Shown here: one piece after another, positions 3,877 to 36,843 of the stretch
Layout: every line of letters starts with the position of its first letter
Numbering within the stretch: the first letter of the stretch is position 1
Virus record (IMG/VR): IMGVR_UViG_3300014000_000001
Span: 96,001 to 160,000 of that record
Source: a virus
Taxonomy: Duplodnaviria; Caudoviricetes
Direction: 5' to 3' (one strand)
DNA length: 64,000 nucleotides
The notes under the pieces: model-generated
What the model saw: the letters and a program-made list of their open reading frames with translations, nothing else
What the model was told of the DNA's origin: nothing
The model's database searches: none
Made by a program: the position numbers and the translations under genes

Positions 3877-4640
3877 TGAAGGACTATCACGGGGACACCT
3901 ATCCACATTTTGTCTGGGTAACCCGTGAGTTCGATTTCGATGTTGTGAAACGTTTGATGGGTATGGAAAGAGAACAGGTCATTGATGCTATTACTTGTTT
4001 TGATGGTTATGTTGAAGTCAATAATCTACACGGATATATTGATGTTTCTGACATCTTAACTGATGCATTTAATATCACATTGGATAGTAATTTCATTTAT
4101 CAAGATGAAGTGATGTTAAATCGAATCAACTGGTGGAGAGACTATTTTGCATTGCTGTGGGACACCGTAAGCTCTAATGAAGATTTAGATGATAATGATG
4201 ATGTAACTTATGCTGACGCAATTACGGACGTTGGTGATTCGGCGCATAAACTCTTGAATATATTAGTTCTAGGTCTAGCTATTCATTTTGATGAAACCGA
4301 GAAGGAATATCTAGCAAATCATGTTGCATGGAAACAGGACATAGAACAATATAGTAGCTATGACCCATACCAAAACTCATATTTACACATGTGTGGAGAT
4401 TTAATCATCTTCCCTTGTTTAATAGGTGAAGACTGTGAAAGTGAAGACCAGCGACAAATACATTCTGTTTATAGGTCTGTCTGCGATAGAAAACTACCCT
4501 CTACTTCACAAAGAGATAGACGCCATCCGCACAGAACTATCGCCCATAATCAATCAGATCATGCAAGATGTTTATCAAAGGAAACTAACCGAGATAGACG
4601 AGGAAAAATTGATCCTTTTGATCGACTCAGAAATTTCTGA
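3870..4640 (+). CDS. acidic hypothetical early protein
   Basis: 256 aa; the last ~70 codons overlap the next gene. Confidence 0.7.
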   Translation: MLMKDYHGDTYPHFVWVTREFDFDVVKRLMGMEREQVIDAITCFDGYVEVNNLHGYIDVSDILTDAFNITLDSNFIYQDEVMLNRINWWRDYFALLWDTVSSNEDLDDNDDVTYADAITDVGDSAHKLLNILVLGLAIHFDETEKEYLANHVAWKQDIEQYSSYDPYQNSYLHMCGDLIIFPCLIGEDCESEDQRQIHSVYRSVCDRKLPSTSQRDRRHPHRTIAHNQSDHARCLSKETNRDRRGKIDPFDRLRNF

Positions 4641-34011: not shown

Positions 34012-34041
34012 AGATCATCCATCCCAAGGGATGGATGATCT
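34012..34041. terminator. bidirectional terminator
   Basis: AGATCATCCATCCC-AA-GGGATGGATGATCT, flanked by GCATAA and TTATGC. Confidence 0.85.
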
Positions 34042-34052
34042 TATGCTATCTA

Positions 34053-34583
34053 TCAATATTGTCTAAATGGGTCAACGTTCTCTTGCCTTAGTTTTTTTTC
34101 GTTCGCTCGAATCTCCTTCTCTAAAGCTTCATCTAATACGTTCTTATCTCCACGACGTAGAAGTTTCACCCAGTCTTTAATTAACCAATCGCACATCCAG
34201 TTAGGAAGCTTGATGAATTCATTAAAGCTCATGTTTGCACTTTCAGCAAGTCCTGAGTTACAAAAGTCAGCGAAGACCTTAGCAATACCTTTATAATCTT
34301 CAAGGTGCTCACTATCGTTATATGCAATGACTTCGTAAGGGTCTTCAGGCTTTTGCTCTAAAAACGTCATGTGAAAGAGTTGGCGTTTGATCATCGAGAG
34401 TTCAAACCCATTTAACTTACCATCATAACCTTTTTTGATGCGACCAATATTATCAACGATTAAACCCCAAAGGTCTTGAGTGTAAGCAGGGTGCTCAAGG
34501 TTAAAAATATGAGTACCCCACTTTTGTTTAAACTTGGCTTGATAATCGTCATCGAACCCTACGGGTTGCGGGCCGCTAGGATA
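34053..34583 (-). CDS. -1 frameshift extension (T-like domain) of the 34559..36271 protein
   Basis: The frame is open for 63 codons upstream of ATG 34394, back to the slippery site; ATG 34394 has no RBS; MSFNEFIKLPNW resembles GT / T4 gp51-type domains. Confidence 0.7.
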   Translation of the reverse strand, partial: YPSGPQPVGFDDDYQAKFKQKWGTHIFNLEHPAYTQDLWGLIVDNIGRIKKGYDGKLNGFELSMIKRQLFHMTFLEQKPEDPYEVIAYNDSEHLEDYKGIAKVFADFCNSGLAESANMSFNEFIKLPNWMCDWLIKDWVKLLRRGDKNVLDEALEKEIRANEKKLRQENVDPFRQY

Positions 34584-34589
34584 AAAAAA
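34553..34589 (-). promoter_or_regulatory. putative programmed -1 ribosomal frameshift signal
   Basis: mRNA CGU UUU UUU AUC gives an in-frame U_UUU_UUU, immediately followed by the GC-rich stem AUCCUA(G)CGG-loop-CCGUAGGGU. Confidence 0.72.
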
Positions 34590-36271
34590 CGACTCACCGC
34601 ATCAATTGGAGTATAAATTGCGGTGCCGTTGTTATTGATCACATTGGATAATTCACCGCAACTTGGGCAAGTGTTGGTGGGTACTGCAAGTACTGCTGCC
34701 AAACGCGATGCAGTTACTCGGCGAATATCATCGTAAATTTTATTACGAATCTCTTCGTTATTACTTAATGTATGGAAAGTTTTACGAATCGCTTCTTCAT
34801 CACGGATTTCTTCCCCATCAATTAAGAACCCATCCACCCAATGCGATACATCAAGCGCTGCAGTGGCCGCCATCTGACGTTGAATCATTTCATTACGGGT
34901 TTCTTCATCCACATTAGTTGTGATTGCATCATCCACTGAATCGATGACAGCTTCAATCCACTTTTCCCCGATTTCAATATGTTTTGCCGCGTTGGGAGCT
35001 TTAAGGATTAAACTAACCCCATTAGCCACTTCAATTATATCTCGTTCATGCATACGTCCTAAACGTTGATACTTTTGAATATCTTCAACGGTTGCTTTAT
35101 CTGCAGACAATGGTTTTGCAATGAATGACTTTTGCCAATCGTTAAACATAGATGAATCAATTTGTGGCAGTAGCATTAAATCAATTAAAGATTCATGACG
35201 ATGACCACATAATCCTTTCTTCGGTTTTCCATCTTCATCTAAGATTGGTTTTTTATCAGCATCCAATCGTGTTTTAAGACCACCACAAGTTTCAACATAA
35301 TTATAACCACGTTGGAATCCAGACGCCATTAACGCCCACGCCATGATTTGAATATCACGATGATCGATATATTGGAAGATATCAGCCCACAAAGATTTAT
35401 CTACGTTACTATCTACCACTTGATTCATGAATTCTTTCATGATGATGCGGTTAGCATAATAAGCAGATGACCCATGAATAATTCCATTAGTACTGCGTAG
35501 GATATCTAAATGGGCGTTATTAACCTTATCCACCATAGCGACTCGTGCAGCTTTAGATAAAGGTTCTATTGCGAACACTAGACCTGAATGCCATAAACGC
35601 ACTAATAAAGAAGAACCAATATCTAAACGACGGAACAATACAGTAATAAGTTGCTCGTGATTTTCTTTATTGGCTAAAGTGTTACCTTGTGCTTTGGTTG
35701 CGAAGTTAATCTTATTGGCACGTAATTTACGTCCATCAACATTTAAATGATCATCCCAACTTGCACCTTCACGAGCACAGAAGGAGAACATATGTCGATC
35801 CATGACGACTTTATTTTGCTCGGCATAATCAATCATCCGTATATCGGTTTCACTACCGCGACCATTTTCTAAACGATCTACGCTGATGTTTGCGGTAATC
35901 TCCATAGTGTTTGGATTACGTGCCCAAACAGCCAATGGATAATACGTGAGCTTTTCATCAGTTGCTTTTTTAATAGCGTCTAAACTTGTACCAATGGAGT
36001 AATCAGAGCTACCATATTTTTTACTCTTTGCTTCTTGTTCGACTGCAACTTCGACCACAGTCTGATCATCACTGTGATAGTCTTCATTTTCTTCTTTAGT
36101 GAGTTCAACCGTTTCAAATTCCGATTCAGTTTCATTCTTTGCAGGTTGTTGAACTTCAGTAGTTTCCTGAGTAGTTTCAGGAATATCTTTAGCTACCTTT
36201 TTAGTTGAAGTGCGTACGCGTGGTTTACGTACAGGTTTGGTTTCATCAACTTTGTTTTCTTGATCGCTCAT
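34559..36271 (-). CDS. putative tail/baseplate-hub assembly chaperone (phiKZ gp77 position; T4 gp26 / G-like)
   Basis: 570 aa; LWHSG, ETC...CGH, TCPSCG; ends ...SRFF at the slippery site. Confidence 0.65.
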   Translation of the reverse strand: MSDQENKVDETKPVRKPRVRTSTKKVAKDIPETTQETTEVQQPAKNETESEFETVELTKEENEDYHSDDQTVVEVAVEQEAKSKKYGSSDYSIGTSLDAIKKATDEKLTYYPLAVWARNPNTMEITANISVDRLENGRGSETDIRMIDYAEQNKVVMDRHMFSFCAREGASWDDHLNVDGRKLRANKINFATKAQGNTLANKENHEQLITVLFRRLDIGSSLLVRLWHSGLVFAIEPLSKAARVAMVDKVNNAHLDILRSTNGIIHGSSAYYANRIIMKEFMNQVVDSNVDKSLWADIFQYIDHRDIQIMAWALMASGFQRGYNYVETCGGLKTRLDADKKPILDEDGKPKKGLCGHRHESLIDLMLLPQIDSSMFNDWQKSFIAKPLSADKATVEDIQKYQRLGRMHERDIIEVANGVSLILKAPNAAKHIEIGEKWIEAVIDSVDDAITTNVDEETRNEMIQRQMAATAALDVSHWVDGFLIDGEEIRDEEAIRKTFHTLSNNEEIRNKIYDDIRRVTASRLAAVLAVPTNTCPSCGELSNVINNNGTAIYTPIDAVSRFFILAARNP

Positions 36272-36273
36272 GA

Positions 36274-36843
36274 TTAAGCTCCTTCAACCATATTTACTTC
36301 TGTGAATTGCTGTGCCTCATTGAGGCAAGTTAATAAACTCTTAATAACTAACATGAGGTCATGAGCAGCTTCTTGGATCAAGGATTGTAATTCGGTATAG
36401 CCTTCAATCAACCCCATGCACTCTGCCCAATGCTCAACCACTAAAACTGTACCTAAAGAGGTCATGTGTTCGATGTTGTCGTTATACAGTTTAGTTGTTG
36501 CGGTTTCAAATGCGGTGAGAGTTTGCACTGCGTCAACTACATTTGTATAAACCTGTGGCCATGCTTGTTTGAATGCTGCCTCAAATTCAGGTTGAGATAC
36601 AAAGTTTTCATTAGTATCCTGAATTAACTTAAAGTGTTCAAGAATTGCTAAGGTGTCAGCGTGCACCTCATCTAAAAATTGCTTAGGGGTTTTCTTGTCT
36701 TTCACAGCTTTTAAGTAGAATTTGGTTTCCTTGGCACTCATAGTGCTGTTGCCTAACATTCCCCGAACACGATTAAGGCGTTTGGTTTCTTCACGTTTGC
36801 GTGCATTATCTTTCACACGACGTTTGCTTTTTGATACAGGCAT
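36274..36843 (-). CDS. hypothetical protein with a basic N-terminus
   Basis: 189 aa, coupled to the downstream gene. Confidence 0.75.
   Translation of the reverse strand: MPVSKSKRRVKDNARKREETKRLNRVRGMLGNSTMSAKETKFYLKAVKDKKTPKQFLDEVHADTLAILEHFKLIQDTNENFVSQPEFEAAFKQAWPQVYTNVVDAVQTLTAFETATTKLYNDNIEHMTSLGTVLVVEHWAECMGLIEGYTELQSLIQEAAHDLMLVIKSLLTCLNEAQQFTEVNMVEGA

Follow-up and report, generated by a model that had tools for sequence, protein, structure and literature searches.

The window analyzed here is a 64,000-nucleotide (nt) stretch of a 232,790-bp viral record in IMG/VR (IMGVR_UViG_3300014000_000001, positions 96,001–160,000). On its minus strand lies a zero-frame open reading frame (ORF) of 570 amino acids (aa; 36271..34559), a homolog of phage phiKZ gp77 (Chimalliviridae cg18; PHROG 4585) that is predicted to yield the short form of a two-form product. 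The 3′ end of this ORF reads AGT CGT TTT TTT ATC CTA GCG GCC CGC AAC CCG TAG. Seven codons ahead of the stop it contains the heptamer T_TTT_TTT (cgT TTT TTT; 34589..34583, minus), which is read directly from the sequence and encodes F562 (34588-34586) and F563 (34585-34583). An initial annotation of this DNA had placed an in-frame U_UUU_UUU shift site at the end of the 570-aa gene, and its position is confirmed. In the −1 frame, translation from 34583 (P0001; 34053..34583, minus) begins with YPSGPQPVGFDDDYQAKFKQKWGTHIF and runs without a stop for 176 codons before its own stop codon. It crosses the 164 nt without a listed ORF that follow the 570-aa ORF and enters an ORF of 113 aa (34394..34053, minus). 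The two frames overlap at 34559..34582 (minus), where the zero frame encodes ILAARNP and the TAG stop (34561..34559) and the −1 frame encodes YPSGPQPV. The coordinates given earlier for the open −1 frame, the filled 164-nt gap, and a fusion of 739 aa (563 + 176) all hold. The predicted junction peptides of this fusion are ...SRFFYPSGPQPVGFDDDYQAK and ...FFYPSGPQPVGFDDDYQAK.

The extension consists of a Pro/Gly-rich linker followed by a helical domain, and the 113-aa ORF, as given by the ORF finder, corresponds to its C-terminal two thirds. This ORF is only the C-terminal part of the extension and no gene of its own. There is no ATG, GTG, or TTG in the −1 frame of the window ahead of codon 64 of the extension. 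In line with the claim that the 113-aa ORF lacks a ribosome-binding site, the 15 nt before the ATG at this codon contain no Shine-Dalgarno (SD)-like motif. A search for promoters and terminators between the 570-aa and 113-aa ORFs on the minus strand also gave no match.

For the identity of the 570-aa gene, a tblastn search with its protein returned 140 jumbo-phage records at approximately 20–24% identity, phiKZ gp77 among them, and phrog_4585 was matched with an E value of 3.6e-62. The gene order here matches that of phiKZ gp75–gp80. Homology over the body together with synteny assigns the 570-aa gene to the phiKZ gp77 family. In the supplement of the Chimalliviridae core-genome paper, phiKZ gp077 and Goslar gp081 are listed as cg18, a "hypothetical protein". 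The homologs in phiKZ, FLC9, and Noxifer stop 8–10 residues or less past the end of the alignment, so the 570-aa form is a full-length family member. Among 25 relatives, residues C329, C355, C535, C538, F562, and F563 are invariant. The 22 closest relatives, which were judged by their protein C-termini (42–58% identity; 559–682 aa), all end in RFF[TI][LQ]...., with seven residues after FF in 21 of them and six in the other. None of these 22 is a fused protein of approximately 740 aa, and a profile search with the extension against 1.84 billion representatives returned only proteins of 52–169 aa and no fusion.

The relatives of the extension (45–59% identity) are separately called ORFs of 154–165 aa that cover 86–88% of it, and in the alignment T24 or Y14 of the window extension lies opposite their first Met. 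Since these ORFs cover the gap region, the 164-nt "gap" is coding. The sole close relative compared at the DNA level is a metagenome contig of 1,052 bp (L005), the one useful locus of a metagenome scan. This contig carries cgT TTT TTT acc with the zero-frame stop seven codons on, and its −1 frame gives YPNGPQPIGVDEEF ahead of the first ATG, a peptide that aligns with the window extension from residue 1. A search of viral contigs for related loci with either the proteins or the alignment gave no match, and neither did a megablast search of the locus against phage records.

For the family-wide survey, 24 annotated loci were taken from phages of Pseudomonas, Erwinia, Serratia, Salmonella, Klebsiella, Escherichia, Vibrio, Ralstonia, Burkholderia, Xanthomonas, and Bacillus. 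The set of 25 loci to which the following counts refer comprises 23 of these loci processed by script, the window, and L005; it includes phiKZ, 201phi2-1, PhiPA3, Goslar, PCH45, and one Bacillus phage. The locus of Xanthomonas phage RTH11 was read separately. At approximately 20% protein identity and 35–58% GC, an in-frame TTT_TTN is found 7–44 codons ahead of the stop in 24 of the 25 loci, a recurrence well beyond chance. The most common heptamer is T_TTT_TTT (13 loci), followed by T_TTT_TTC (four), G_TTT_TTT (two), and A_TTT_TTT (two), with single occurrences of G_TTT_TTC (Noxifer), T_TTT_TTG, and T_TTT_TTA (Bacillus phage AgentSmith). Thus, the canonical T_TTT_TTN is present in 19 loci, five have G or A at the first position, and that of pVa-21 is non-canonical. 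The −1 frame is open from the site in all 25 loci and reaches the end of the downstream ORF in 24, spanning 154–178 codons. The initial annotation had proposed conservation in phiKZ gp77 homologs as a check, and both the T run and the open −1 frame are indeed kept in them. The 24 annotated downstream ORFs are all in the −1 frame except that of Pseudomonas phage RVTF4 (L028 ~2450-2510), in which an indel breaks the frame. In this phage, a stop ends the −1 extension at 58 codons. Where G5 would restore the frame of Psa21 there is a G4 run, and what is left out of frame is annotated as the downstream ORF (2528-2848); the G4 run looks like a homopolymer error.

Several patterns indicate that nucleotide sequence and both reading frames are constrained at the site. 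In 24 of the 25 loci, TTT encodes the first Phe, even though TTC is the predominant Phe codon of many of these genes (TTT/TTC in the rest of the gene: 0/17 in FLC4-4C, 1/16 in DT01, and 1/20 in RVTF4). The product of the gene-specific TTT frequencies is 10^-14.3, a value that is overstated since the phages are related, although its direction is clear. No other run of T6 or longer is present in any of the 25 genes. Within the extension, the motifs YP.G.PE.., H[VI]....FG, Y..D.GI, and M[ST]F.EF..LP align across the family, and the zero-frame tail after FF (TL..Q[RK][VI]..) is likewise conserved. Conservation of both the zero-frame tail and the −1 peptide suggests that both ends are under selection and that both products matter. 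The first ATG, GTG, or TTG of the extension is found anywhere from codon 9 to codon 88, mostly past the conserved motifs YP.G.PE.. and H[VI]....FG, and is preceded by an SD-like motif in just four of the 25 loci. The ratio of nonsynonymous to synonymous polymorphism (pN/pS) was calculated for two close pairs, as more distant pairs are saturated. For the first 14 extension codons of the window and L005, pN/pS is 0.20 in the −1 frame and 1.8 and 2.5 in the other frames; for the first 18 extension codons of Psa21 and RVTF4, it is 0.13 in the −1 frame and >1.6 in the others. Ahead of any start codon, the extension shows purifying selection in the −1 frame.

None of the 24 annotated records contains a join or slippage annotation at this locus. 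In phiKZ (L001 3641-4143), a −1 frame of 165 codons starts at the T7 run of gp77, and RefSeq PHIKZ076.4 (80 aa, ATG at 3901) covers only its final part; there is no ATG, GTG, or TTG between this run and the PHIKZ076.4 ATG. The predicted junction peptide of the phiKZ fusion is ...STFFYFGGLEVKPDGVVNDLR. In Erwinia phage Desertfox (L019 2232-2780), the downstream gene gp268 is annotated from 84 nt upstream of the T run, within gp269; it appears that gene calling traced the open −1 frame upstream as far as the closest start.

Two explanations would make recoding unnecessary. One is an artefact or gene decay, in which the run is actually T8 and a single uninterrupted ORF encodes the 739 aa, or the gene has recently become a pseudogene. 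Homopolymers are error-prone, and likely homopolymer faults are present at or near the locus in two public records (the T run of RTH11 and the G4 run of RVTF4). Against this, the T7 run of the window, for which the initial annotation had proposed a read check, is crossed with zero gaps by Logan contigs of three separate studies (X2, X8, and X10), which excludes an assembly error. The same frame break is found in 24 other loci, including Sanger-sequenced phiKZ, and in 47 Phikzvirus records that match a 131-nt probe of the phiKZ site over its full length; among the matches listed (10), all are exactly 131 nt. In addition, the zero-frame stop and tail are conserved, and a fused single ORF was not found in any homolog or profile search. 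An artefact or decay is therefore effectively refuted already. In the Logan contigs, nine of the 10 single-nucleotide polymorphisms (SNPs) of other samples within the downstream ORF are, by arithmetic from the coordinates, at third codon positions of the −1 frame. The sample SNPs cluster at 34071-34136 and 34272-34278. Near-identical DNA is present in wastewater and "surface" metagenomes, where at least 20 runs from 12 studies contain part or all of a 601-nt probe (window 34300-34900). The other explanation is that there are two ordinary genes, the downstream ORF being made alone from a non-canonical or internal start or by termination-reinitiation, while the T run merely reflects a need for FF. 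Consistent with this, a canonical start is found 24–63 nt past the site in 201phi2-1, L005, Psa21, Noxifer, Yong, and C-ZP2022, and the close relatives P0003–P0007 have an ATG at extension codon 24 or 14. At 34506-34520 (minus), the window has ACT CAT ATT where relatives have the codon-24 ATG (MHVFN), so that an ATT at codon 26 is preceded by AAGTGGGGT. T4 gene 26 reportedly uses an internal AUU start, and the ATT of the window may likewise allow internal non-AUG initiation, giving a small free protein in addition. However, conservation and purifying selection extend to the codons ahead of every start, the first starts are scattered and mostly lack an SD-like motif as described above, and the downstream ORFs remain stop-free in the −1 frame back to the T run despite approximately 80% protein divergence. 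Moreover, a requirement for FF leaves the preference for TTT over TTC unexplained. We consider two separately translated genes very unlikely. Judging from these sequence comparisons, programmed −1 recoding, ribosomal or transcriptional, very probably yields short and long isoforms in the gp77 family.

Ribosomal −1 frameshifting is, in our view, the probable route of this recoding, with the involvement of the ribosome and the efficiency of the shift being inferred. Most ribosomes would decode TTT TTT (F562 and F563) and seven more codons before reaching the stop, giving the 570-aa short form, whose last residues would complete the C-terminal helix. Some ribosomes would instead slip one base back on T_TTT_TTT (34589..34583), with tRNA-Phe re-pairing on UUU, and read YPSGPQP... 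for 176 codons. The resulting 739-aa long form would consist of the same body, a flexible Pro/Gly linker, and a helical C-terminal domain, and selection would keep both forms throughout the nucleus-forming jumbo phages. As read from the sequence, the heptamer is of a slippery type that should allow both tRNAs to re-pair in the −1 frame, and a long, conserved, putatively translated −1 frame overlaps the zero-frame end. The constant feature among the 25 loci is the in-frame TTT_TTN register, whereas the run length varies from T5 to T8; this pattern fits a ribosomal shift better than polymerase stuttering.

Several observations weigh against ribosomal frameshifting or against a uniform site. No stimulator of the expected kinds, either a structure 5–9 nt downstream or an SD-like element upstream, was identified at the site. 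An SD-like sequence upstream of the site is present in only seven of the 25 loci, with no consistent element. A conserved downstream hairpin was not found by minimum free energy folding of 70 nt against shuffled sequences, in which z falls below −2 in four of the 25 loci. The unusually GC-rich stem noted in the initial annotation is not supported by folding: compared with shuffled sequences, z is −0.25 for the first 50 nt downstream of the site and +0.18 for 70 nt, neither of which indicates a stable structure. The value of −0.25 is that of a small hairpin in the window, CCUA..UAGG, which includes the stop codon. The GC richness after the site is due to the Gly/Pro codons in the −1 frame. In E. 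coli, U-rich heptamers shift more weakly than A_AAA_AAG (PMC5009743). Because FF is an invariant helix pair, protein constraint could explain part of the register conservation. As for the sites themselves, pVa-21 carries A_CTT_TTT rather than TTT_TTN, and in six loci the heptamer begins with G or A or the run is only T5. Finally, RTH11 (L016 ~2345-2560) has T7 where the frames need T8, as found in its relative LucasX. The annotated 627-aa coding sequence of RTH11 runs on in a third, non-homologous frame, and its normal tail (FFTLLGQRT..) and extension (YPSRPAHQ..) would each need a shift. The short run is likely a homopolymer error, or else a hint of polymerase slippage.

Transcriptional slippage would lead to the same product as a −1 ribosomal shift, with the phage RNA polymerase stuttering on the A7 template and adding one U, such that the 739-aa protein (..FFYPSG..) is encoded in one frame. 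T7–T8 runs are present in 16 of the 25 loci, and slippage would accommodate the failure to find a conserved RNA stimulator. E. coli genes avoid UUUUUUU in all frames, possibly due to slippage (PMC4066793). These phages all have their own multisubunit RNA polymerases, and a property of the polymerase could persist across very different hosts; transcripts of heterogeneous length would also tolerate the RTH11 run, which is one T short. Conversely, eight of the 25 loci have only T5–T6, which is short compared with the runs on which bacterial or phage polymerases are known to slip, and one has CTTTTT. The in-frame TTT_TTN register is constant and the run length is not, and where the second codon is TTC, TTG, or TTA (seven loci) the run is shorter but the heptamer rule is kept. 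Logan contigs of runs labeled "RNA-Seq" are probably derived from DNA and are uninformative on U8 transcripts. Taken together, we regard transcriptional slippage as an unlikely, although not negligible, source of the long form.

The AlphaFold2 model of the 570-aa body is confident, with a predicted local distance difference test score (pLDDT) of 80.8 and a predicted template modeling score (pTM) of 0.81. Its C-terminal helix (558–568) contains FF, so the shift would replace the end of this last helix. Residues 1–67 (window 36070-36271) are Lys/Glu/Thr-rich and predicted to be disordered (pLDDT 30–49); in the relative P0030 (682 aa), the N-terminal disordered region is approximately 100 residues longer. 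The extension is modeled with a pLDDT of 75.6 and a pTM of 0.37 as an all-helical domain with a long helix at 128–168; it begins with a Pro/Gly stretch of low confidence, and the pLDDT of its first 10 residues is 53. Foldseek searches against PDB found no meaningful match for the body (E ≥ 0.28) or the extension (E ≥ 1.9), and the same was true of a wide VIA structure search (best Z 3.6). In Pfam, nothing scored above the cut-off, and the PHROGs matches have no assigned function.

The genomic context comprises a helicase gene (gp75-like), gp78- and gp79-like genes, and a virion RNA polymerase beta gene, and these neighbors are shared by the window, phiKZ, FLC9, and Noxifer. Directly upstream, an ORF of 189 aa (36274-36843, minus) has its stop 2 nt ahead of the 570-aa start and occupies the position of phiKZ gp78, with no match in Pfam or PHROG. 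Right after the extension stop is a terminator-like hairpin with a T tail (34033..34016, minus). The operon order appears to be the gp78-like gene, the gp77-like gene with its extension, and then the terminator. phiKZ gp77 is absent from the 40-protein phiKZ virion atlas (PMC13250141). Our working guess, weakly supported, is that the gp77 family may act as a non-virion assembly factor.

A possible relationship to T4 baseplate assembly proteins was also considered, as the initial annotation had pointed to T4 gp26/gp51 and two GenBank records label the gp77 homolog as a "putative baseplate hub assembly protein", citing T4 gp26. The C-terminal CxxCG..FFxL is common to both families; more fully, members of the T4 gp26 family and the gp77 family both end in AVP..CxxCG ... 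FFxL and both have an earlier Cys pair. An ESM-Atlas feature search found neighbors that include clusters with PF12322 in 16% of their members (score 0.92, 203/256 features), and T4 gp26 and gp51 belong to this Pfam family (216 and 178 bits, respectively). Nevertheless, PF12322 did not match any of 25 gp77-family members at E ≤ 1. It also had no match at E ≤ 10 in the whole 232,790-bp record, a search in which the controls gave none either and by which absence of the family is not shown. Alignments with hhalign against the T4 gp26/gp51 profiles gave probabilities of 1.6–29% (28.7%, 3.2%, 2.3%, and 1.6%), with local matches that are colinear and lie on both Cys pairs. The gp77-family protein is 2.7 times longer than T4 gp26/gp51, and the two systems differ in how a second form would arise, which is by an internal in-frame start (26′) in T4 gp26 and by a frameshift in the gp77 family. 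We treat this sequence resemblance as a lead, not a result. Extrapolating from it, the gp77 family might be a giant distant relative of gp26/gp51, with both forms acting as a fixed-ratio pair that builds the phiKZ-type baseplate or tail. This would represent a second, independently evolved assembly chaperone system with two forms and a −1 shift, operating from Pseudomonas to Bacillus without a recognizable RNA stimulator, possibly by way of the phage polymerase or a conserved nascent peptide. Such a scenario is speculative and, taken as a whole, rather improbable.

In the literature searched, including papers on the phiKZ virion atlas, the Goslar structure, and the core genome, jumbo-phage reviews, and the Atkins 2016 recoding review, frameshifting was not mentioned for gp77 or its homologs, and "gp77" denotes other genes in the papers on Goslar, PhiPA3, and PCH45. 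The supposition that such a frameshift had not been described in Chimalliviridae is thus consistent with the sources covered. The mechanism is of a known kind, and its occurrence in the gp77 core gene family is unannotated in the 24 records. phiKZ and its relatives are model nucleus-forming phages and candidates for phage therapy, and although their 68–72 core genes are intensively studied, cg18 is still listed as "hypothetical". If the proposed recoding is true, all of the public records examined mis-annotate this locus, with a small truncated ORF (e.g., phiKZ gp076.4) in place of a C-terminal domain of 160–180 residues. The proteome of the family would gain an isoform of approximately 690–740 aa that genetic screens, localization studies, and mass-spectrometry searches would have missed. 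In hosts ranging from Pseudomonas to Bacillus, the family would also provide a naturally replicated series of U-rich shift sites (T5–T8, with third codons of four kinds) that lack an obvious stimulator. These sites could serve as a test bed for U-rich shifting and for distinguishing ribosomal from polymerase slippage where transcription and translation occur in separate compartments.

Among known recoding systems, lambda gpG/gpGT exemplifies a −1 frameshift that is conserved in the tail assembly chaperone genes of long-tailed phages. The gp77 family resembles this pair in having a heptanucleotide near the 3′ end, predicted short and C-terminally extended forms, conservation over very divergent phages, and a product not seen in the virion. 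In contrast, the gp77-family body is 570 aa rather than about 100–150 aa, its site is T_TTT_TTT rather than G_GGA_AAG, and the gene is located between the helicase and the head/virion-RNA-polymerase genes rather than between those for tail tube and tape measure. No tail-assembly-chaperone family in Pfam or PHROG matched the 570-aa protein, and the fold match to the HK97 chaperone 2ob9 is at noise level (Foldseek E 0.82, VIA Z 2.8). The Atlas neighbors Phage_TAC_19 and Phage_TAC_11 score 0.83 and 0.79, under the lead threshold. Of the earlier proposal of a G/GT-like chaperone pair, the hidden conserved −1 site and the two predicted forms are upheld, whereas the chaperone identity is not supported, with a different gene position and no clear match in family or fold. 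The "G/GT-like" label is therefore best taken as a formal analogy only.

The −1 frameshift of T7 gene 10A/10B, reportedly described by Condron et al. in 1991, is similar in that slippage of tRNA-Phe at a U-rich site (G_GUU_UUC type) late in the ORF adds a C-terminal extension, and Noxifer has G_TTT_TTC. The two differ in that 10B adds approximately 50 residues to a capsid protein, whereas here a domain of approximately 175 residues, predicted to fold separately, would be added to a non-virion core protein; the gp77-family site, unlike that of T7, is conserved at the family level. The tandem slippage on X_XXY_YYZ is comparable to that of gag-pol in human immunodeficiency virus 1 (HIV-1) and of E. 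coli dnaX. The gag-pol shift site of HIV-1 is U_UUU_UUA (PMC4373837), and the AgentSmith homolog has exactly T_TTT_TTA. HIV-1 needs a stem-loop and dnaX an SD-like element plus a hairpin, none of which is detectable at the gp77-family site. As with tau and gamma of dnaX, the outcome would be two isoforms of one gene, but the dnaX shift shortens the protein whereas the gp77-family shift would lengthen it.

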